Positions 4,620 to 29,287 of a stretch of DNA of 64,000 nt are shown here, one piece after another. A program made the position numbers and the translations under genes. Position 1 is the stretch's first letter. Every line of letters begins with the position of its first letter. The notes under the pieces are model-generated. The model searched no databases. It was given only the letters and a program-made list of their open reading frames with translations, and had not been told where the DNA came from. The stretch is from positions 4,941 through 68,940 of IMG/VR virus record IMGVR_UViG_3300035498_000179; one strand, written 5' to 3'. The DNA comes from a virus. Taxonomy: Duplodnaviria > Caudoviricetes.

Positions 4620-4988
4620 TTAGTTGGCAAGAGACAGTGATTTAGGCATCTCTGTCTTTAAGACACTCGTACAACTGACTGTCTTCTGTCTCATAGGTCT
4701 CGTTTCTCGAACTTTAACATAAACAGGTCTGTCTACAGTTTTAGTTCGATAGATGATGCTATCCCTTTTCTGGATAGTTACTACGACATTCTGTTCTATA
4801 CCTTCTGCTGAGACGGTATTATTGTTCAAGTTAATGTCGAAAGTTGCCTGTGATTGTCGAGGTACGTCCGTAAATCTTGGGACGATTACTTCGTGAGCGG
4901 TGGAGGTTGTCGATAAATCAGACATAAAACCAATATAACCACCGATAGTTAGCATTGCTAACGTCAATAAAGTATTTACCTTTTTCAT
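4620..4988 (-). CDS. Secreted or membrane-anchored hypothetical protein
   Basis: 122 aa with an N-terminal hydrophobic signal-like segment. Confidence 0.7.
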   Translation of the reverse strand: MKKVNTLLTLAMLTIGGYIGFMSDLSTTSTAHEVIVPRFTDVPRQSQATFDINLNNNTVSAEGIEQNVVVTIQKRDSIIYRTKTVDRPVYVKVRETRPMRQKTVSCTSVLKTEMPKSLSLAN

Positions 4989-9630: not shown

Positions 9631-9669
9631 TTTAATTCGAATTAAAAGTTTGATACTAGTAAATAATTG

Positions 9670-9715
9670 TGTGAGGGAGGGATTTGAACCCTCCTTTCAG
9701 TAAGCCAACCTCACC
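9670..9715 (-). ncRNA. tRNA-like mini-element (acceptor-type stem plus T-arm, no D or anticodon arm)
   Basis: Minus strand reads GGUGAGG-15 nt-GAGGG UUCAAAU CCCUC-CCUCACA: a 6-bp acceptor-like stem and a canonical T-arm. Confidence 0.55.
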
Positions 9716-9960
9716 CAGCTTTATACGACATTAGCTTAGCCGTGCTATACTTGTATCACGCAGCGATACGAGTATAGTCTGTTACAAAAGTGTTGCCAAT
9801 TATGGCGTTATGACCTATTCATTATGTCGATGTCACCCGTCAAAACCACAATGCCCCTTTGTAGGATATCGTGGAGCATGAGGGATTCGAACCCTCGTCC
9901 GAACGATTGCATAATGACCTAACAGTCATAGTAGCCTAGGGGGCGATCAAACCCCCTAGA
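9716..9960 (-). ncRNA. ssrA: Circularly permuted (two-piece) tmRNA, predicted tag (A)GNTFVTDYTRIAA
   Basis: The acceptor piece GGAC-GAGGG UUCGAAU CCCUC-AUGCUCC-A (ends 9872) precedes a 14-nt spacer and the 5' end GGGGCAU-UGUGGUUUUGAC (starts 9857). It has the G3.U70 Ala determinant. P2 pairs 9819-9826 with 9910-9917 and 9809-9814 with 9925-9930. The tag frame 9797-9756 follows AUAAUU and ends in Ala-Ala-TGA. Confidence 0.85.
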
Positions 9961-10446
9961 CTTTGAAAAACAACCTTAAAAACAATATAACAAAGTGATA
10001 CAAAGCATTAGAGCATTGCTGTATCGTATGTAACACATTAAGCTTATGTATTTAAAGTTAATAGATCTTTGACAGAATACATATCATACCAAGTGCTCAT
10101 TCTATTGCTAGAAGACTCGATTGAAGTATAGGCATAAAAGCATTATACGTATATGTATTTTGATATACTTACTGTTTATTCGTCTATGAGACTACACCTC
10201 ATCTTAACCGCGATTCGCCACTGCATTAAGAAATCACATTTTTAGCATAAAGCATTTCATGCTTAGAGGTATGATCTATTTATAGCGCATGATCAGTAGG
10301 CATATATTATCCACCACTTACCATAAAGTTATCATGGTGCTGTCAATTCAGCCATATCATCTGCCGTAGCCTCGAATTGAACAATTCCCTGTACGTGTCT
10401 AGATGATTTTCGGATTTAGCATAAAAGCGTTATCCGGGATAGTCGG

Positions 10447-10818: not shown

Positions 10819-11052
10819 AATTGTAAAATTTTAATTGTTAATAATTGATTTAATTGAGTGATTGCTTTTTGATAAAGAAAGATTATCTCATTTATTTGTA
10901 TGTCTTATTCGTGAGTATCCCTTTTCCTTCTTCTGACCACTAATGTGGTTGACCGTTGTATAGTCCGTAGTACTCTTGCTTTTAAGCTTCCTTTAGGGGT
11001 TTGGATTTATAATCTTCCTAAATTGTAATGTTCCTTTTTCATGTTGTACACT

Positions 11053-12079: not shown

Positions 12080-12168
12080 GTGCATGATTTTAACGCCTGC
12101 ACGATCACACCCGCTTGACTAGTATGGGCTAGTGCTTACGCCCCACATGCTTGTCATTTTCTGAAGGA
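12080..12168 (-). ncRNA. Hatchet-like self-cleaving ribozyme, variant copy
   Basis: CAAGCAUGUGGGGC...GUGCAGGCGUUAAAAUCAUGCA. Same core blocks as the 13979-14062 copy, with a different central hairpin region and a short P1. Confidence 0.6.
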
Positions 12169-13359: not shown

Positions 13360-13402
13360 GTTTTCCTCCTTTTTTTAATTGTTTTTAAATTGTTAATTAC
13401 TG

Positions 13403-13476
13403 TGGACCAGCTTGGGTTTGAACCAAGGACCTCTAGATTATGAGTCTATTGCTCTAACCAACTGAGCTACAAGTCC
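13403..13476 (-). tRNA. tRNA with CAU anticodon, most likely tRNA-Ile2 (lysidine type); elongator Met is the alternative
   Basis: GGACUUG UA GCUC AGUUGGUUA GAGC A AUAGA CUCAUAA UCUAG AGGUC CUUGG UUCAAAC CCAAG CUGGUCC A. The G1-C72 pair argues against fMet. The anticodon arm GACUCAUAAUC resembles bacterial Ile2. CCA is not encoded. Confidence 0.85.
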
Positions 13477-13978: not shown

Positions 13979-14062
13979 TGCATGATTTTAAAGTCTGCAC
14001 TAATACTAGTTTAAAACTAGATATAAGCCCCACATGCTTGCCACGGATTCTCACCGTTGAGA
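13979..14062 (-). ncRNA. Hatchet self-cleaving ribozyme
   Basis: CAACGG UGAGAAU CCGUGG CAAGCAUGUGGGGCUUAUAU CUAGUU UU AAACUAG UAUUAGUGCAGACUUUAAAAUCAUGC. Near-identical in P1 loop and core to the published env10 hatchet as recalled. Confidence 0.85.
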
Positions 14063-14150
14063 CAGTTTAGTTAAGTAAATGTCACTATCTTCACAGACAA
14101 TGACATTTTAATGACAAATCCAAATGTTGAATTGTAGAGCTATTCAGATT

Positions 14151-19674: not shown

Positions 19675-19877
19675 AACCGGTAATAAAACCGACAATATAT
19701 ACAGAGTTAGCTAATAAATATCAGTTGCCTTACCAAGTTATCGAAGTAATCTGCAATAGTCCTTTTAAATTTGCTAAGCAAGTAATGCAAGATGACGATG
19801 ATATTAAAGATGTGATGTTTGCTTACTTGTTTAAAGTTAAACTTAAAAATCGTATAAAGAATGAGATTAATAAATAG
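19671..19877 (+). CDS. HU/IHF-like small DNA-binding protein (TAG stop; 28 aa longer if read through)
   Basis: IYTELANKYQLPYQVIEVICNSPF...VMFAYLFKVKLK pattern. Confidence 0.55.
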   Translation: MKPVIKPTIYTELANKYQLPYQVIEVICNSPFKFAKQVMQDDDDIKDVMFAYLFKVKLKNRIKNEINK

Positions 19878-20562
19878 CTCGGTAGAGATCCTCGACCAGA
19901 TAAACGGCGAAGAGGTTCTAAAGAAGTTAGAGAGGATAGCAAGAACATGCTACAAGAGTGAAAAGCGCATTACTGAGGATGGTTCGTCTGCTAGGAAATT
20001 GCTGACTAATATCATTAAATCAGGTCATGAAGCAATGATTGAGCATTACTCATTCAGTGTTAAGTTTATCTGCAGTAGAGCAATATCACATGAATTGGTA
20101 AGACATAGAATGGCTAGTTTTGCGCAGGAGAGTCAGCGTTATGTTAATTACGGCAAGCGTGGAGGGATCGAATTTATTATACCAGTTAATCTGGAAAATC
20201 AAATAAGCCCTGGAGACGACGCGTTATCAGTATCGATAAAAGATCTGATTAATGGTTGTAATGACTATAGCTTTGCTGAAAGATTTGCAGCAAATGCGTG
20301 GCGCAGTGAAAATGTATATCTTACGGCGATAGAAAGCGGAGTAAAGCCACAAGAAGCCAGAGATTTACTAATAAATGCAACTAAGACTGAAGTAGTAATG
20401 ACAGCTAATCTTCGTGAATGGAGGCACTTCTTTGAATTACGTTGCGATCAAGCCACTCACCCAGATATGCGCAAGTTGGCGTTAGACTTACTCAAACAAG
20501 CGCATGAAAAGATACCTGTGATATTCGATGATTTGTACGACAAGTTTATAAAAACAGAATGA
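19861..20562 (+). CDS. thyX: FAD-dependent thymidylate synthase
   Basis: GHEAMIEH, SRAISHELVRHR.ASFAQESQRY and NLREWRHFFELR motifs. Confidence 0.95.
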   Translation: MRLINSSVEILDQINGEEVLKKLERIARTCYKSEKRITEDGSSARKLLTNIIKSGHEAMIEHYSFSVKFICSRAISHELVRHRMASFAQESQRYVNYGKRGGIEFIIPVNLENQISPGDDALSVSIKDLINGCNDYSFAERFAANAWRSENVYLTAIESGVKPQEARDLLINATKTEVVMTANLREWRHFFELRCDQATHPDMRKLALDLLKQAHEKIPVIFDDLYDKFIKTE

Positions 20563-20697
20563 TATGTGGGAATTTTTACGAGAGTGTTTGAAGAAACAAT
20601 ATACATTTCATTGCCTTGACGGCATCGATTTCCCTGCCGATATACTGAATGATATGCTGATGTGGATTGCAATGAGTGATAATAGAATAATGCAATT

Positions 20698-21210
20698 ATG
20701 GTCTTAAAAGAATACAATAATATCTATACAAGAACATTATTTGTTGCGGTCACTGACAACAGGAAAGACTTGCAGAAATTAGTTAAGGACTTTACTTTCT
20801 GTACACGGGAGTATCCATTCACAACCCAATATACGGGTGATCTTGTAGAATTTTTAGCAAATGTGTGTAATCGCACTACTGCGTTTTGTTCACCAGTAAT
20901 TCGAAACAGTGATAATAAATGCGGCATCATGTGCATTATCCCAGAAGTGAAGGGTGCAGATATAAACACTGTTGCACACGAAGCAACTCACATTACGGAC
21001 TATTTTTATCAATCATTACAAATGGACGCCCAGGATTATTCAGAGGGTAATGAGCCTTACGCTTACCTTGTTGGCTGGGCCGCTGAGAATATACACAAAA
21101 CGTGTTGCGAATATGAGACAAAGCTTAGAAGAGTCAAAAATTCTATGGGCTCTAGAAAAAATGGGCCAAGGAGAAGTAAAAAACGAAGCGTTCAACAAAC
21201 TGATGAATAG
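20698..21210 (+). CDS. Hypothetical protein with an HExxH (zincin-like) motif
   Basis: VAHEATHIT...EPYAYLVGW. Confidence 0.6.
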   Translation: MVLKEYNNIYTRTLFVAVTDNRKDLQKLVKDFTFCTREYPFTTQYTGDLVEFLANVCNRTTAFCSPVIRNSDNKCGIMCIIPEVKGADINTVAHEATHITDYFYQSLQMDAQDYSEGNEPYAYLVGWAAENIHKTCCEYETKLRRVKNSMGSRKNGPRRSKKRSVQQTDE

Positions 21211-21373
21211 GGTTGATAAGTTGATCGACTATTATGATGTAACTTACGAAGAGTTTAGATATGATCTTTCTAGTGAGTTTGAAAAGGTTGGTCAGACATT
21301 GAGCGATTCGCATGAAATAATAACTACTGTTTCTACTAATTTAATAAACAAGTATAAGAAATATGGAGAGTAA
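21113..21373 (+). CDS. Hypothetical protein (likely start MRQSLEES)
   Basis: ATG at 21113 within ORF 20972..21373. Confidence 0.55.
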   Translation: MRQSLEESKILWALEKMGQGEVKNEAFNKLMNRVDKLIDYYDVTYEEFRYDLSSEFEKVGQTLSDSHEIITTVSTNLINKYKKYGE

Positions 21374-21692
21374 AAAGTACGATCAGGGTAAGGCTAGAAT
21401 GGATTTGATCCCTCTAAGTGTTATGGAAAATGTAGCTAAGATACTTGGGATGGGCGCTGAGAAGTATGGTGAAAACAACTGGCAAGAGTTACCAGACTTC
21501 TGGAAGAGATACAAAGCTGCTTTGTTAAGACATCTGACCGCCATAGACAAAGGTGAATTGATAGACCCAGAGAGTGGCTTACCTCATATAGATCACGTAC
21601 TTTGCAATGCTGTATTTCTTAGTTATGGTTACCACCACGGTAAAGCAGTTAGTATAAACGAAAAAGATATTGATGATGACACTGAAATTTAA
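21363..21692 (+). CDS. dATP/dGTP diphosphohydrolase-domain (DUF5664-like) protein
   Basis: KKYDQGKARMDLIP...GAEKYGENNW...ALLRHL...DPESGLPHIDH motifs. Confidence 0.8.
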   Translation: MESKKYDQGKARMDLIPLSVMENVAKILGMGAEKYGENNWQELPDFWKRYKAALLRHLTAIDKGELIDPESGLPHIDHVLCNAVFLSYGYHHGKAVSINEKDIDDDTEI

Positions 21693-22182
21693 AAAGTTAG
21701 ATTACACCGTAACAAGTGGAGACGGTGTTGAAGAGATTAAGAAGTCTGAAGGAAAGTTACCTACTAGAGCTAAAACAGGTGATGCCGGTTTAGACCTGTA
21801 TTCTACACGTGTTACACAGGAGGTTGATAATAGTGGTAAAGTAGTGCTTACTTACCATACTGATATCGCTGTAGAAATCCCTGAAGGCTACTGCGGGTTA
21901 TTGATGATGAAATCTTCAGTTTGGCGTAGGTCACTTACTTTAGTTAATGGTACAGGAATGATAGACGCTGGTTACAGAGGTGAAATCCAGGGTAAGTTCA
22001 AAGTAATCACTGATGCTATACCCACCATTTACCAGGTAGGCGAGCCGTTCGCACAGTTGGTAATTGTACCGTGTTACATTGCTACGCCGGAATTCGTTGA
22101 AGAATTGAGTGAAACCGATCGTGGTGAAAAGGGTTTCGGTGAAGCTACAGAAGAGATGTTGAATAATAAAAATGCAGAGTAA
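21670..22182 (+). CDS. dut: dUTPase (trimeric)
   Basis: AGLDL, G.IDAGYRGEI, FAQLV and RGEKGFG motifs. Confidence 0.92.
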   Translation: MMMTLKFKKLDYTVTSGDGVEEIKKSEGKLPTRAKTGDAGLDLYSTRVTQEVDNSGKVVLTYHTDIAVEIPEGYCGLLMMKSSVWRRSLTLVNGTGMIDAGYRGEIQGKFKVITDAIPTIYQVGEPFAQLVIVPCYIATPEFVEELSETDRGEKGFGEATEEMLNNKNAE

Positions 22183-22184
22183 TT

Positions 22185-22514
22185 ATGAAGATGAATATAC
22201 AAGTTGCAGGTGAATCTGGTGTTGGTACTTACATGATAGTAAGCACTGAAGTGTGGACAGCTAAGTCTACCCCGGTAACAGGTGAGTGGACTGATGATAC
22301 AGAAAAGGAAGCTGTAGATGAGATCGCAATGGCGCTTTCCGATAATGAAGCTAACCTTTTGTATGCAGAATATGACAGCTTTGTAGAAGCTCGCAAGAAT
22401 GCAGAGGCTGAAGCAGCATATCGTGCTGAACACCCTGAGGAGTTTGAAACACATAGTATGGATGAGAGTGACGGCATCATGAGCGCGTCTATACCTGAAC
22501 CACAGGCTGAGTGA
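22185..22514 (+). CDS. Acidic hypothetical protein
   Basis: 109 aa, packed with neighbours. Confidence 0.65.
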   Translation: MKMNIQVAGESGVGTYMIVSTEVWTAKSTPVTGEWTDDTEKEAVDEIAMALSDNEANLLYAEYDSFVEARKNAEAEAAYRAEHPEEFETHSMDESDGIMSASIPEPQAE

Positions 22515-22759
22515 TGAGTAGTGCACCGAAATTAGTAGAACTGCAAACTGTAGGCGATGGCCTGCAGTTCGTGGTTACCGTCAACGACGAGACATTCACA
22601 TCACCGGTAATAATGAAAGAACCGTATACGCAGGAACAGATTGACGATGCATTAGGCTTAATACTTGTTTCAATTGACCCAATGTGGCGACCGATGGTAA
22701 AGTCTCAGGCAGCTGACGCAATAAAGAACCTGAACATAACAGAAGATGAAACTGTTTGA
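22511..22759 (+). CDS. Hypothetical protein
   Basis: 82 aa, overlapping start and stop. Confidence 0.6.
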   Translation: MMSSAPKLVELQTVGDGLQFVVTVNDETFTSPVIMKEPYTQEQIDDALGLILVSIDPMWRPMVKSQAADAIKNLNITEDETV

Positions 22760-23282
22760 TATAACCGGTGGTCAGATAACAATCCACGCCGATATGTTAG
22801 GTTTGCCACCGTTTAAGAAGGTTTGGGAAGCAGACAAGGACAAGGAACACGCTATCAACCTAATCAGTTATATCGTACTGATGTGGTATTACAAATCACC
22901 ATATGTACAGCAATTAGATCCAGAAACTAGAGAAAAGAAGCTCAAGGACATCTACTTTGGTGATGAAAACTATTCGCTTACTGTAGATGAAAAGATCTGT
23001 GAATCTGACTATAAAGACCTTATTTATACCCGTAATTTAAAGATGCTTGATAGTATGCGTAATAAGATTGATACTATCAGTCAATATTATGAAGACTCGC
23101 TTAGTGAGGAGTTAGATGAGCGTAAGATCAAAGATCTGTTAGCTGGTATGGAAAAGGTTAAAGCTACATTCCAGACATTGGATTTCCTTGAAAAAGCTGT
23201 TAAAGCTGAGGAATATGATAGTGTTAAAGTACGTGGTGATTCGAAGATTAATCCGTATGAACTTGTAAATTCCAAACGATAA
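22746..23282 (+). CDS. Conserved crAss-like protein upstream of terminase (possible small terminase subunit)
   Basis: 178 aa. The position before TerL is suggestive; the function is inferred only. Confidence 0.55.
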   Translation: MKLFDITGGQITIHADMLGLPPFKKVWEADKDKEHAINLISYIVLMWYYKSPYVQQLDPETREKKLKDIYFGDENYSLTVDEKICESDYKDLIYTRNLKMLDSMRNKIDTISQYYEDSLSEELDERKIKDLLAGMEKVKATFQTLDFLEKAVKAEEYDSVKVRGDSKINPYELVNSKR

Positions 23283-23284
23283 AA

Positions 23285-23313
23285 TACAACTTTTTTGATA
23301 ACATGCGTTATAG
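23285..23313 (+). promoter_or_regulatory. ECF-type promoter TACAAC-N15-CGTTATAG upstream of the suppressor tRNA
   Basis: Matches the repeated motif; lies 21 nt before the ATG at 23334 and ~320 nt before the tRNA. Confidence 0.6.
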
Positions 23314-23333
23314 TATTTAAATAAAGAAATCGT

Positions 23334-23564
23334 ATGAAGAAAGTATTAGATTGCACAGATTGCAACAGTGTTGCAGAAGTTGCAGAGAAGATCGAGAAGG
23401 ATCTGTTGGCAAATATGCCGAGATTTAACACAAAGAAGAACTCTAAGAAGAAACACAATCAGAAACAGACGACGTCTACTGATGAGGCTAAATCCGAGAA
23501 AGAAGAAAAGCCGGTAAAGCTCAGTGTCTGGAAGAGAATCAAGAACTGGTTCAAGAGATTGTAA
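23334..23564 (+). CDS. Small basic protein
   Basis: 76 aa, Lys-rich, C-terminal WKRIKNWFKRL amphipathic helix. Confidence 0.65.
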   Translation: MKKVLDCTDCNSVAEVAEKIEKDLLANMPRFNTKKNSKKKHNQKQTTSTDEAKSEKEEKPVKLSVWKRIKNWFKRL

Positions 23565-23664
23565 TTTTAGATCGAAAGATCACGCTTCATTCTAGTCATT
23601 TGCGGTTGGACATTAACTAACCGCCATATTGCCCATTGGCGTACCGGCTAGCGCACCTGGCTCT

Positions 23665-24659
23665 TAAAACTTTTCAATGTATAATTGATTATAAACTATG
23701 GCAAATAAGATATACGAATTGACGGACGAACAGTTCATCGAATTGATAAAGAACAGCGGGAATATCGCTGAAGTGTTATTCAAATTAGGATGTTCAGTAA
23801 AAGGAAACTCCTGGGGTTATTCACAAGTAAAGCAAAGAATGACTGATTTAAATATCGGTTATGACTTGTTTAAAGGTAAAAAAGCTGCAATTGAAATTAC
23901 CCAATTCTGTAAGAGACTAGACGGGGATTTGATACTACGAGAAAATTGCAGACACTCTAGACAAGCATTACGTAGACATATAATTAGCAACAAGTTGCTA
24001 CCTTATAAATGTGCTATTTGTGGAGTAACCGAATGGAATGGTAAAACTTTAAGTTTGGAAATAGATCATATAAACGGCATAAATAATGACAACCGTTTAG
24101 AAAATCTAAGATTCTTATGCCCTAATTGCCATAGTCAAACTTCAACTTACGGTAGTAGAAACAGACAGATAAATGAACCGAGATACGAAATATCTGACGA
24201 TCTTAGGAAACTCATACGTGAAACTTATGAGAAATATAAGAATGTGAAAGTGGTATCTAGTATCCTTGGTATACGACGAAAGGTTGTTACTATTGTAGTA
24301 AATGAAGAAGGTTTGAAACACAGTAATCAAAAGTACGTTATACGTTACGATGCAAATTATAACGAGTTAAAACGATACGGTAGCTTAGTAGAAGCTGCAA
24401 AAGATCTTATAGCAAACAACGAAGTTATAACAAAGCAAGTAAAGACCTGTACTAGAACAATATCTATGAACAATGGAAAGTTCTGGTTAAACAGTTATTG
24501 GAAAGTGTTGGATGGCTGCGGGATAATAGATAATCCGCAGTTAGAATCTTCTCTAATTGACTCGGAAGATAGAAATATTGACGAGGCGCAAGCGAAAGCA
24601 GCGTGACAGACTAAACGAGAAGACTGATCTTAGGATTGGATTTAATAGTCGTGATAATG
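23665..24659 (+). mobile_element. Group I intron (995 nt) inserted between anticodon positions U35 and A36
   Basis: The 5' exon ends in U and the intron ends in G. P1 pairs 23665-23678 with 24497-24512, with IGS GUU-G-GA. Other helices: P2 CUGCGG/CCGCAG, P3 CUUCUC/GAGAAG, P4-P6 with GAAA loops, P7 GACUA/UAGUC. Confidence 0.88.
23698..24606 (+). CDS. Intron-encoded HNH homing endonuclease
   Basis: CAICG...LEIDHINGINNDNRLENLRFLCPNCHSQT. 302 aa, no TAG. Starts in the P1 loop and runs into the intron core. Confidence 0.9.
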   Translation: MANKIYELTDEQFIELIKNSGNIAEVLFKLGCSVKGNSWGYSQVKQRMTDLNIGYDLFKGKKAAIEITQFCKRLDGDLILRENCRHSRQALRRHIISNKLLPYKCAICGVTEWNGKTLSLEIDHINGINNDNRLENLRFLCPNCHSQTSTYGSRNRQINEPRYEISDDLRKLIRETYEKYKNVKVVSSILGIRRKVVTIVVNEEGLKHSNQKYVIRYDANYNELKRYGSLVEAAKDLIANNEVITKQVKTCTRTISMNNGKFWLNSYWKVLDGCGIIDNPQLESSLIDSEDRNIDEAQAKAA

Positions 24660-24731
24660 AACCCAGGGGGAGTGGGATCGACACCTACATGGGCTACCTG
24701 AATCATAATAATTTAATTTAAGAAACAGTAA

Positions 24732-26795
24732 ATGGTTGATTTCTAGAAAAAAATAAGAAATTCGGACAAGTTCCGTGAACCAGCCCTGTAGTTTATTGCT
24801 ACAGGGCATTACTGTTTATACCCTGCTGGTACGTCCGAATACTATCAGTATTGGGATGAACAGTTGAAGCGATGTATTGATGGTTATACTGCTGCAGATG
24901 GTGACTACATCTCTGGGTATAACTATTTTTATATTAATTTCTGCCCTATTCAGCGTATTGTAAACACAGTTACTAAATTAGATAATGGCGATACTAGAGT
25001 AAAGCGTACTAGTGAGGTTACATTCCCGGACTTCTATGATTACGATTATTACTATTTTCAAGCAGTACAATAGGCGGAAGATGAAGGTAAGCATATCTGC
25101 TTACTTAAGTCCCGTCGTAAAGGTTTTAGTTATAAAGGCGGTTCTATGGCTTGCCGTAATTACTACCTAATACCAAATAGTAAGACTTATATCTATGCGT
25201 CAAATAAGCAGTACCTTACTGAAGACGGCATTCTTACTAAAGCGTGGGACTATATGGACTTCATAGATAAGAATACAGCCTGGGGTAAGAAGCGATCTGT
25301 AAATACGAACATGCGTAAACGATCTGGCTTCATTACTAAGGATGAATTTGGTAACGAGGTTGAGCAGGGTTATAAATCAGAAATTATTGGTGTAACGCTG
25401 AAGGATAACCCAGACGTAGTACGTGGTAAGCGTGCTAAGCTTATTCTATTTGAAGAAGGTGGTTCATTCTCCGAATTAGGTGCTGCGTGGCAGATTGCTA
25501 GACCGTCTGTAGAACAAGACGGTATCGCATTTGGTACTATGATTGTGTGGGGTACCGGTGGTGATGAAGGTAGTGCGTTTGCAACTATGAAGGACATGTT
25601 CTATAACCCAGAAGGTTATAACTGTCTCGGATTCTAGAATATCTGGGATGAGGGTTTAAGTAGTAAGGAATGCGGATTCTTTGTACCATAGTATACTAAT
25701 CTGGATACACGTGATGAGAATGGTAACCGCATCTACATGGATGACGATGGTAATACATATACTAAGAAATCCATGGAATTCATCCTTGAGCAGCGCAGGA
25801 AAGTAATAGAGAATGCAACTAACTCTACAGCGGTAGATAGATATGTAGCGGAACGTCCTATAACTCCAGCTGAAGCTATGCTGGAATTCAACGGTAATAT
25901 CTTCCCAAAGAAAGAATTACAGGAGCAATTAGCCTTACTACGAACTAATAAGAATTTGTCTAACTACAAACAGGTTGGCGATCTTGTGTTTGACGAGTCT
26001 AATCAATTACGCTGGATACCTAAGAAAACTGGTGATATTACACATTACCCATTAAATAAAGATGATGACCCTACCGGATCTATAGTAATCTGGGAACATC
26101 CAAATAAAGAAGCAAGCGCCGGATTGTATTGCGCAGGCTGTGACCCTTATGATCATGATCAATCTACGACTACTTCATTAGGGTCTTGCTTTGTGTATAA
26201 ACGCGTACAAAACTTAGAACAATATTCTGATATCATCGTTGCGGAGTATACTGGAAGACCAGAGTCTTCTGATGACTTCTACGAAAACGTACGTAAGCTG
26301 TTACTTTATTATGGTGCAACACTGATGTACGAGAACCAGAATAAAGGGTTATTCGTGTACTTTACACAAAAGCACTGCGATTACTTATTAGCCGATACAC
26401 CCGATATCATTAATGATGTAGTTGCTAATTCTAAAGTAAATCGTAAGAAAGGTTGCCACATGAATAAGCAGATTAAATAGTGGGGCGAAGGGTTAATTAA
26501 AGAATGGCTCAATGAGGTTAATGCTAATGGCAAAAAGAACCTATACAACATACTTTCAGAACCGCTATTAGAAGAATTGATAAGCTATAATGATGTGGGT
26601 AACTTCGACCGTGTGATGGCGTATATGCAGGTAATGATCTATCGCGAACAGTTGTTCAACGTAGTGGTCAAGAAGAAAGAAAAAGAAAACAAGTCTAGGA
26701 TGCTATTTGATGGACCGATATTTGCGCAAAATTGGTTTGAGGATAAGCCTCAGAGTAGTGTGTTAGACGATAATGTATATACATTCGGAACATGA
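24732..26795 (+). CDS. terL: Terminase large subunit, code 15 (6 TAG), 687 aa
   Basis: KSRRKGFSYKGG Walker A region, LILFEEGG Walker B, and CAGCDPYD nuclease motif. TAG at 24744, 24789, 25071, 25635, 25689 and 26478 join four track ORFs in one frame. Confidence 0.93.
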
Positions 26796-29287
26796 AAAAT
26801 AGTAGTAAATTCCCAGCACAGAAGCTCCCTATGCGACTCAAAACCAAGACATGGCGAGAACAGTGCGTAGACTATATTGTCGGTGAAGGTGACACAGGTT
26901 ACTCCGGCATAAATGGGGAAGAATATGAAGAAATGCAAACGTACTATGATCTGTATAACAGTATCTATAATGAGAAGGATCTGAAGTATGTTACTAACCC
27001 GTTTAAGCAAGACGATGGATTCCCTGCAACAGCACAGGACTACAACATCATAAAGCCTTACATAGACCAGCTGCTTGGTGAAGAGACTAAGCGTCCATTT
27101 AATTTCCAAGTATGCCACACTAGTAATGATGCTAAATCAGACCTACAGGATAAAGCTAAGGAGATGCTTATAAACTATTTATAGGCAACTATTATGAGTA
27201 AGCTTGGACCTGAGGAACAGTAGCGCTATCAGGAAGGGTTACAGTCTGGTGAGATTATGACCCCTGAACAGATTCAGAAGTACATTAACAAGGAATATAA
27301 GGACATTGCTGAGATTGAAAGCTACCATGCACTGGAGTACCTCAAACGTAAATTAAACGTGTACCACGAGTTCTATAAGGGCTGGAAAGACGGTTTAATT
27401 GCTGGTAGAGAGATCTATTACTGTGGTATAGTGAATGGTCAGCCTTACATGGAAAGAGTCAACCCTGAGTACTTTAAATTCGAGAAATGCGCTGATTTGG
27501 AGTTCATTCATGACGCAGCTTGGTGCTGTCGCAAGATGGTAATGTCTGCTACAGATATCTACGATCGTTTCTACGATAAGATGACTGAGAAGCAGTTGAA
27601 TGACTTACTGGAGTTGATTGAAGATAAACCAGGAGCTGGTTATACATCTGAGATACGTAAGACCAACATGGACTACGAATCAATGAAGATGCATAGAGTA
27701 AGTCCCTTTACTGATAATCCATTTGATAGCGATCACATCAATGTATGGCATTGCTGTTGGAAGTCGTTTAAGAAGATTGGATTCGTATCAGTAATTGATC
27801 CTGAAAGCGGTGAAGTAGAAGAGTACCAAGTAGATGAAGATTACAAAGTAACTGGTATGGAACAATCTGTTGAGTGGAAATGGATTGTTGAAGTGTGGGA
27901 AGGCTATAGAATTGGCGATAGTTTATACTTAGGTATAGAACCTTTAGCTTACCAGCACGTATCTGCAGATAACCCCAATTCACAGAGATTACCTTACACT
28001 GGTGTAATCTATAACAACACCAACAGTAAGCCCAGATCATTAGTAAGTATGCTGAAACCGTTACAGTACATGTATATCGTAGTATGGTATCGTTTGGAAT
28101 TAGCTATGTCTCGTGATAAAGGTAAGGTAGCGTTGATCGATGTTACACAGATCCCTAAGAGTATGGGTATTGACGTTGGTAAGTGGATGCATTACTTAAG
28201 TGCGCTTGGTGTAGCATTCATTAATCCCGCCGAAGAAGGTTGGGATGTACCTGGTCGTGAAGGTGGTCGTACAGCACAGTTTAATCAGTTCCAGTCGTGG
28301 GATTTGAGTATGGCTAATGTAATAGACCAGTACGTTAATTTGATGGCTAAGATCGAAGATATGGTAGCCAAATTAACTGGTATTACACCACAACGTCAGG
28401 GTCAGATTGCAGCAAGTGAATTGGTTACTAACGCTAATACAGCTGTTACGATGTCCTACCATATCACTGAACCGTGGTTCTGGACTCACAATCAGGCTAA
28501 ACGTGAAGCGCTGAATATGCTGCTCAATACTAGTCGTGTAGCATGGAAAGACAGTAAGATATGTCTTAACTATATACTTGATGATGGTACTAGAGCATTT
28601 ATTCAATTATCTGATCAATTCCAGTATTCTGATATAGATATCTTTATTGAAGATAGCACGAAGAATAGTCAGAACATTGAACAGTTACGTCAGTTGATGC
28701 AACCGGCTATGCAGAATGGTGCTAGCTTACTCGATATAGCTGAGATCATTACTATGGATAATGTCACTATGATCAAGGACAAATTAGCTGAGATTGAGCA
28801 GAAACGTATGGAGCAGATGCAACAGCAGCAACAGGCTGAACAGCAAGCACAGCAGCAACAGATTGAAATGCAGAATCAGGTTAAGGAAGAGGAGCTGATG
28901 ATCAAGGAAGCAGAGATGGATCTTAAGAAATATGAGATTGATCAGAATAATGCTACTAAGATTACAGTTGCTGAGCTTAATGCTTATCGTGGTACTGAGA
29001 ATATGGATCAAAACGGAGATGGCGAAATAGACGTTGTTGAGATTGCAAATCAAGCGTTGCAAAAACAAAAAGTAGATTCTGAAACTGCAGCTAAACAATT
29101 AGAATTAAACAACAAGCGCAGAGAAATTGAGAATAAAAAAGAAATCGAGAATAAGAAATTAGAATTAGAAAAACAAAAAATGAAACATGAAACGGAACTT
29201 TAGAAATAGAAAGATGCGGAAGCTTATAAGCGTGAAAAATTAAAAGCATCCACAGCTCTAAAGAATCATGTTGTTGGAGAAAAATAA
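26792..29287 (+). CDS. Portal protein, code 15 (4 TAG), 831 aa
   Basis: crAss-like portal signature directly after TerL. TAG at 27182, 27221, 29201 and 29207; ends at TAA. Confidence 0.88.

Follow-up and report, generated by a model that had tools for sequence, protein, structure and literature searches.

An amber-suppressor tRNA gene of a crAss-like phage, probably split within its anticodon by a mobile group I-type intron

In this study, a stretch of 64,000 nucleotides (nt) from a crAss-like gut phage was analysed (positions 4,941 to 68,940 of the IMG/VR virus record IMGVR_UViG_3300035498_000179; hereafter the window, meaning the whole stretch, whose numbering is used throughout). We believe that the locus at 23630-24696 is very probably a phage amber-suppressor tRNA gene, split between U35 and A36 of its anticodon by a group I-type intron. 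The split gene is conserved in related phages, paired positions covary in both the tRNA and the intron, the intron is present in some alleles and absent from others, and in complete relatives the split gene is the only suppressor that was found. The parts of the gene are as follows.

23630-23664, plus strand: tRNA(CUA) exon 1, 35 nt, with the acceptor 5' strand, the D arm, the anticodon stem 5' strand and loop nucleotides C32 U33 C34 U35
23665-24659, plus strand: group I-type intron, 995 nt, with boundaries taken from the tRNA cloverleaf
23698-24606, plus strand: HNH homing endonuclease open reading frame (ORF), 302 aa, no TAG, from the ORF listing and Pfam HNH
24659, plus strand: terminal intron nucleotide (omega), G, read from the sequence
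24660-24696, plus strand: tRNA(CUA) exon 2, 37 nt, with A36 A37 C38, the anticodon stem 3' strand, the variable loop, the T arm, the acceptor 3' strand and A73, followed by CC

When the two exons (23630-23664 and 24660-24696) were joined, ARAGORN called a tRNA(cta) with a 7-nt anticodon loop, CUCUAAC, in which CUA occupies positions 34-36. An earlier annotation of the same DNA, here called the sequence-only reading, had proposed that the joined exons give a full cloverleaf with anticodon CUA, and had described an insert of 995 nt ending in G. Its coordinates proved exact, ARAGORN agreed on the spliced sequence, and the insert starts after U35 and has G24659 as its final nucleotide. It had also expected standard scanners to overlook such a gene, and this was borne out. 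The unspliced locus gave nothing with ARAGORN, with ARAGORN in intron mode (-i1500/-i2000) or with Rfam (at the gathering threshold, and at E ≤ 10 on 1.2 kb), and the intron mode also gave nothing when it was run over the region, the window and the genome. The joined tRNA has discriminator A73 and two oddities, a U1xU72 mismatch and the T loop AUCGACA (A54). The same T loop and mismatch are found in the unsplit tRNA of contig L094, which scored 46.5 bits with the Rfam tRNA model. Exon 1 of the window is also present, with the same sequence, in contig L011.

Relatives of the split gene were sought with a conserved 26-mer from P6-P7-P3' of the intron and, besides this, with blastn. The same intron was found in at least 25 other phage contigs, namely 22 IMG/VR contigs (26-mer), the Bohxovirus PV686213 (blastn) and two contigs from metagenome-assembled genomes. 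The last two, 40-47 kb long and carrying the same split phage tRNA, came from a scan of 185,579 prokaryote genomes, in which the intron family was seen in no bacterial chromosome. The intron site in these contigs is always CUCU/AAC, in varied tRNA(CUA) bodies, and removal of the 977-1002-nt insert at this site restored a tRNA(cta) in at least 13 contigs, those with enough sequence. The anticodon stems differ yet compensate (CCUGG/CCAGG, GUGGG/CCCAC, GGAGG/CCUCC, GAAGG/CCUUU and GGGAG/CUCC), and the acceptor stems are likewise compensatory across the family. A split gene that recurs in at least 25 other contigs, with tRNA and intron both showing compensatory changes, goes far beyond what chance would give.

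The window phage belongs to Crassvirales and is Suoliviridae-like, as judged from its terminase. According to the ORF listing, its plus-strand genes from 24732 onward are open only when TAG is read through, and the upstream genes at 19861-23564 contain no TAG. Two of the late genes are needed here.

24732-26795, plus strand: terminase large subunit (TerL), 6 in-frame TAG, codon 5 being TAG; the first TAG-containing late gene
26792-29287, plus strand: portal, 4 in-frame TAG

A 1319-aa ORF of the window contains 18 in-frame TAG. The start of TerL at 24732 lies 36 nt past the tRNA 3' end, so that the earlier placement of the gene 36 nt ahead of a TAG-rich late region holds, with TAG counts of 6 for TerL, 4 for the portal and 18 for the 1319-aa ORF. 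When the TAG codons of the window portal were compared with relatives, Gln was found in 9 of the 12 aligned cases. TAG is read as a sense codon in the genes of the window phage, most likely as Gln, and the tRNA would accordingly be charged with Gln. In five complete TAG-recoded relatives, the portal carries 6-20 in-frame TAG and no tRNA(CUA) other than the split gene was found; because of this, late-gene translation in these phages requires removal of the intron. The earlier proposal that split genes explain "missing" suppressors is thereby supported in five complete recoded genomes.

The intron is not found in every tRNA(CUA) gene of this kind. In 8 other contigs there are unsplit tRNA genes with exactly the sequence (100% identity) predicted for the spliced tRNA of L009/L015, and the unsplit genes of L060 and L065 match the predicted L018 product in the same way. 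After its intron was removed in silico, L018 was colinear over 2.8 kb with L065 (96.8%) and L060 (97.2%). For the relatives, the intron boundaries thus follow from intron-free alleles whose sequence equals the predicted product of splicing. For the window's own tRNA, a search for the exact intron-less junction gave 0 matches, and a shorter anticodon-arm pattern found the unsplit L094 tRNA, which is 89% identical to the window type. L094 is syntenic with the window, and its window-type tRNA stands unsplit 14 nt before TerL. In cr6_1, an unsplit tRNA(CUA) is located at the same position upstream of TerL (L002:1969-2042).

The intron ORF scored 24.8 bits with Pfam HNH against a cut-off of 21.4, and it is intact and free of TAG in all relatives. 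It sits in the loop of P1, continues through the internal guide sequence (IGS), P2, the P3 5' strand, P4, P5 and P6, and ends with a TGA codon within J6/7, so that the ORF and the ribozyme core overlap by about 100 nt. An encoded HNH protein and intron-plus and intron-minus alleles with a precise junction, as expected of a mobile intron, are thus both present. Because identical tRNAs occur without the intron in near-identical flanks, because the host tRNA bodies are unrelated and because the HNH gene is carried along, the intron is optional and appears to be mobile. The reading that fits best is that of a selfish passenger, tolerated since it splices, with homing and self-splicing both presumed from these sequences. 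The occurrence of the intron in very different tRNA(CUA) bodies suggests that the endonuclease recognises little beyond the anticodon-loop DNA.

We consider the following account likely. A mobile group I-type intron with an HNH gene in its P1 loop would have invaded a tRNA(CUA) gene between U35 and A36. The primary transcript would be unable to form the anticodon arm, and a working suppressor would arise only after intron removal and exon joining, with removal presumably by guanosine-initiated self-splicing. The insertion would be tolerated because removal works, even though the phage needs read-through of TAG for its terminase, portal and other late genes. Acting on DNA, the endonuclease may carry the intron into intron-free tRNA(CUA) genes in related crAss-like phages. 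The dependence of the genetic code on splicing would be incidental, a side effect of the invasion and not an evolved timer.

The core of the putative ribozyme occupies the last 153 nt of the intron and consists of the IGS candidate, P2, the P3/P7 pseudoknot, P4-P5, P6 and P8, with 8 nt then running to G24659. It was evaluated in an alignment of 19 distinct sequences, using a named structure of 39 pairs; the controls were the same structure with partners slid by 1-3 columns, and shuffles. The elements are listed below, together with whether the minimum free energy (MFE) fold contains them where this applies.

24507-24512, plus strand: candidate IGS GUUGGA, tentative; GGA pairs with exon UCU (G24510.U35) and GUU with exon 2 AAC (P10)
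24516-24540, plus strand: P2 by topology, CUGCGG/CCGCAG with a 13-nt loop; 4 of 6 pairs with compensatory changes, 100% paired; in the MFE fold
24547-24553, plus strand: P3 5' strand UCUUCUC, pairing with 24617-24623; 7 base pairs (bp), 100% paired, invariant except for one C to U change giving U.G; in the MFE fold
24561-24585, plus strand: P4 (CUCG/CGAG) capped by P5 (GAUA-GAAA-UAUU), from covariation
24586-24604, plus strand: P6 (GCGC-AA-GC GAAA GC-A-GCGU); 100% paired, one compensatory pair (L008)
24607-24613, plus strand: P7 5' strand, C-(A bulge)-GACUA, pairing with 24646-24651; carries the G-C pair of the guanosine site and forms the pseudoknot with P3
24617-24623, plus strand: P3 3' strand GAGAAGA, from the 19-sequence alignment and the MFE fold
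24624-24639, plus strand: P8 (CUGAUC uuag GAUUGG); 3 pairs with compensatory changes
24646-24651, plus strand: P7 3' strand UAGUCG, from covariation and a match to the Rfam consensus

Across the 19 distinct sequences, 99.3% of the cells of this structure were paired and 14 of the 39 pairs had changed on both sides. The slid controls gave 34-50%, and none of the shuffles matched the real structure. The MFE fold by itself recovers P2-P6 and P8. Compensatory changes were found in all 4 pairs of P5, where several members have GNRA loops, and in one pair of P4 (L014, CUCA/UGAG), and one pair of P7 changes from A-U to G-C in 14 of the 19 sequences. Some compensatory changes in the core fall on synonymous codon positions of the overlapping ORF. 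Identity between family members is 82-88% in the core, compared with 67-71% in the ORF part and the rest of the intron. The consensus of the Rfam group I model Intron_gpI (RF00028), taken from the printed alignment of a bona fide crAss group I intron hit, agrees with the window at two places. The P3-J3/4-P4 5' segment of the window, AAUCUUCUCUAAUUGACUCGGAA, parallels the consensus AAauCuGuCgAAUUGCGGgAAA, and the P7 strands AGACUAAAC / AUAGUC equal the consensus aAGACUAAAc / AUAUAGUC. The IGS candidate stands directly ahead of the first core hairpin, with GGA (24510-24512) 3 nt before P2; GGAUGG is invariant in all 19 sequences, and all family members have U at position -1. The connectivity and the consensus matches point to a compact, divergent group I intron, which we presume to be catalytic.

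The hairpin in the P2 position (CUGCGG...AUAAUCCGCAG) is nearly identical to P4 of the Rfam group I consensus (UGCGGg...uAAuCCGCAG), and the helix in the actual P4 position is CUCG/CGAG only. This likeness may be coincidental or may be left over from a rearrangement. It led us to consider an alternative P3 (CAGUU at 24492 with GACUG at 24622), which was dropped: the guide sequence would fall in J3/4, and one member breaks the pairing. A better partner for P1 was also sought, and a G-rich site that recurs roughly 150 nt downstream of the intron start (near window position 23813) offers up to 7 pairs, mostly G.U. It was set aside as a site within conserved coding sequence, far from P2 and dominated by wobble pairs. 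A small hairpin downstream of the 5' splice site and ahead of the HNH start codon was noted by eye in the intron leaders.

23674-23688, plus strand: leader hairpin UCAAU/AUUGA

In the family, this hairpin has 5-6 bp (UCAAU/AUUGA; UUCGAU/AUUGAA), and by eye its pairs are kept in L009, L014, L018 and L024 with G.U/G-C exchanges. It might hide the start region or lengthen P1.

Several results weigh against a self-splicing intron in a sole suppressor gene. P1 and P10 have 3 bp each, and the exon is invariant, so that covariation is impossible here; equally long matches occur elsewhere in the intron. P1, including its U.G pair, would close a loop of 840 nt. There is no P9 hairpin, and 8 nt in total (UGAUAAUG) lie between the P7 3' strand and the splice site. 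RF00028 gave no match to the window intron (23665-24659), either at gathering or even at E ≤ 10 on 1.2 kb, and it was silent on the same intron in five relatives, though it matched other group I introns there. The sequence-only reading had drawn helices P1-P9, of which P2-P8 are real and covarying, P9 is absent, and P1 and P10 have the lengths just given. Its IGS, GUUGGA, does lie at 24507-24512, with 3 bp per side. The nucleotide at omega is G in 12 and A in 7 of the 19 distinct relatives, and the second step of classical group I splicing should not tolerate A. In addition, the assembly of the window phage covers 68,940 nt of an expected ~97 kb, and a second suppressor is possible in the ~30 kb missing; because the assembly has only this length, the split gene as sole tRNA(CUA) is unproven for the window phage itself.

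The omega-A members are L001 (4005-4014), L003, L010, L012, L019, L022 and L014 (core-alignment columns 169-177). They form two independent lineages, one clade of six and L014. One omega-A allele lies at 65232-66208 of PV686213. P7 is unchanged in the omega-A members, and three complete omega-A genomes have a portal with 6-20 in-frame TAG and no other tRNA(CUA). Shifted splice sites were tried for these members, and no shifted pair among all those tried yields both a 7-nt loop and omega G.

One explanation for these results is that the intron derives from group I but is not autonomous, its exons being joined via a protein (the HNH protein as a maturase, or a host or phage factor). The omega-A lineages would then use a non-canonical second step or a cleavage-plus-ligase route. 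Such an intron would suit the minimal core of 153 nt with no P9, a tiny P4-P5 and a 3-bp P1 closing its long loop; it would also suit the blindness of the Rfam model and the finding that genomes with omega A still depend on TAG read-through. However, all elements of the catalytic core are present, P7 is canonical, purifying selection is strong, and U-1 and omega G are both present in the copy of the window; we regard a protein-dependent intron as highly unlikely. It is even harder to believe that the locus is a dead tRNA gene wrecked by an endonuclease element, with read-through provided by another tRNA in the unassembled ~30 kb or in the host. The incompleteness of the window genome, the odd T loop and the U1xU72 mismatch would agree with a dead gene. 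Against it, cloverleaf pairing is preserved by compensatory changes across many split alleles, the intron core is more constrained than its ORF, the odd features are common to the unsplit L094 gene, which Rfam scores as a tRNA, and no other tRNA(CUA) is present in any of the five complete recoded relatives.

The sequence-only reading had regarded splicing as a possible timing device for the switch of the code: the intron would be kept because it delays or conditions the suppressor, and TAG decoding would be turned on only once the ribozyme folds. In one version, folding of the ribozyme could compete with translation of the HNH ORF through IGS-P6. Several features speak for such a switch. The precursor is unable to act as a tRNA, the gene stands 36 nt ahead of TerL, whose fifth codon is TAG, and the five complete relatives have no tRNA(CUA) besides the split gene. 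Moreover, with about 100 nt of the core inside the ORF, ribosomes and ribozyme folding would be mutually exclusive on each transcript. The comparison of alleles argues the other way, since phages with flanks 96.8-97.2% identical, and many others, have the identical tRNA in an intron-free form, and the tRNA type of the window itself is unsplit in the syntenic L094. The intact homing endonuclease gene and the presence of the same intron in unrelated tRNA bodies indicate horizontal spread. No regulatory feature for splicing was found. The promoter motif that had been placed at 23285 was not recovered by a sigma-70 scan; this promoter and terminator scan, whose coverage excludes Bacteroidota and phage promoters, found sites no commoner than in shuffles and was uninformative. 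A switch kept for its timing is very improbable in our judgement, and we prefer the tolerated mobile intron. A bolder proposal, which we hold to be unlikely, is that early ribosomes translating the HNH ORF through the IGS and P2-P6 keep the ribozyme unfolded and delay maturation of the suppressor, which would build a delay into the switch to TAG as Gln in intron-bearing phages, and, separately, that the omega-A members are the first natural group I introns to ligate exons without a terminal guanosine. If the delay were true, late-gene decoding would depend on an RNA-catalysed step.

Group I introns in tRNA anticodon loops are already known; what is new here is the host gene, the site and the architecture. 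For example, Williams 2020 (bioRxiv 10.1101/2020.01.27.920355) described 21 classes of bacterial tRNAs split by group I introns, which were found with the Rfam model. U-1/G-omega was present in 98.5% of 5292 cases in that work, with no class having a non-G omega. Like the bacterial and plastid tRNA introns (tRNA-Leu UAA 'Leu.3Ug', fMet.2Ug, Arg.5Ug and Ile2.5Ug, with 17 further classes in Williams 2020), the phage intron lies in the anticodon loop after a U, has a proposed U.G pair in P1 and a P3/P7 pseudoknot core, and leaves exons that rebuild a normal cloverleaf. The bacterial genes are also missed or mis-mapped by ARAGORN and tRNAscan. Unlike the bacterial introns, it interrupts the amber-suppressor gene (CUA) of a phage, at a site after loop position 4 (CUCU/AAC), which would make it 'Sup.4Ug'. 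The phage intron further differs in being below detection by the Rfam model, in having no P9 and in including a sub-lineage with omega A. An HNH gene sits in its L1, in contrast to most bacterial tRNA introns, which have no ORF and a length of 200-300 nt.

Mobile group I introns with HNH or GIY-YIG endonucleases are well known in phages, such as those of T4 td, nrdB and nrdD and the DNA polymerase intron of SPO1 and SP82 with I-HmuI. Studies have also shown that crAss-like phages are rich in introns (Yutin et al. 2021, PMC7886860). Like these, the window intron is borne by a phage, carries an endonuclease, is optional between close relatives and has an ORF that overlaps the ribozyme. The T4, SPO1/SP82 and crAss introns interrupt protein-coding genes, whereas the host here is a tRNA that alters the code its own late genes need.

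Suppressor tRNAs have been described in crAss-like and other gut phages (Yutin 2021, PMC7886860; Borges et al., bioRxiv 10.1101/2021.08.26.457843), and the window gene is like them in having CUA in the loop CUCUAAC and TAG-rich late genes. The position just upstream of TerL is common to the suppressor genes of the window, cr6_1 and L094. The described suppressors are continuous genes, whereas the window gene is split. Introns are mentioned by Borges et al. (bioRxiv 10.1101/2021.08.26.457843) in protein genes only. Short, unclassified and 'enigmatic' introns have been reported in Lak megaphage tRNAs, where they were found with eukaryote tRNAscan settings (Devoto et al. 2019, PMC6784885). The Lak introns likewise lie in tRNA genes of alternatively coded gut phages (PMC6784885), but they were reported for Tyr, Thr and other tRNAs, not for a suppressor, and, unlike the window intron, they have no endonuclease gene. 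In a full-text literature search, no published account of a phage suppressor tRNA split by an intron was found.

Yutin 2021 (PMC7886860) and the Zeta-group paper (PMC12386605) both report recoded crAss genomes in which no suppressor was detectable; they explain this by host tRNAs or by divergence and leave genes split by introns out of consideration. The split gene gives a concrete and checkable answer to this problem (PMC7886860, PMC12386605), and annotation of alternatively coded phages needs an exon-based search. The genetic code of such a phage would be hostage to a ribozyme, and failure of splicing should abolish virion production. The system would also provide clean genetics for group I splicing in Bacteroidota phages and for recoding as a regulator. 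For ribozyme specialists, the interest lies in an omega-A sub-lineage that is apparently still functional and in a small core (153 nt, no P9) that is invisible to the model.

Some observations on the tRNA genes and their surroundings should be added. The tRNA(CUA) genes of L004 (4723-5790), L006, L020, L082 and L092, split or not, lack the D-loop GG or the T-loop consensus. These atypical genes (e.g., T loop GGAGGCA) are not called by ARAGORN and may be non-canonical or decaying suppressors. In the Bohxovirus PV686213.1, two tRNA-like genes (78071-78142 and 73052-73123) have anticodon loops of 8-10 nt, one with UUAG. The portal match of this phage contains 4 in-frame TAA beside 12 TAG, and the TAA codons may point to further recoding or come from an artefact of the alignment.

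The unsplit tRNA(CUA) of cr6_1 is separated from TerL by a free-standing GIY-YIG homing endonuclease gene (L002:2058-2987), and the tRNA-TerL junction appears to attract endonuclease elements. About 1.1 kb of extra sequence is present inside the 3' part of TerL in L011 (314-1454), a close relative with 93% identity, and in L094 (9017-10148), and not in the window (26608-26625); it is probably another optional intron or an intein. On the minus strand of the window, a permuted tmRNA gene is located at 9665-9963, with the ARAGORN tag peptide GNTFVTDYTRIAA and stop, and it scored 48.5 bits with Rfam tmRNA_permuted against a cut-off of 47. Three further RNAs on the minus strand, at 10876-11030, 12082-12168 and 13980-14063, comprise one RAGATH-9 RNA (122 bits) and two hatchet ribozymes (73.8 and 90.3 bits). 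They flank a tRNA-Met (13402-13476), so that small self-cleaving ribozymes are clustered around the tRNA region of the phage.

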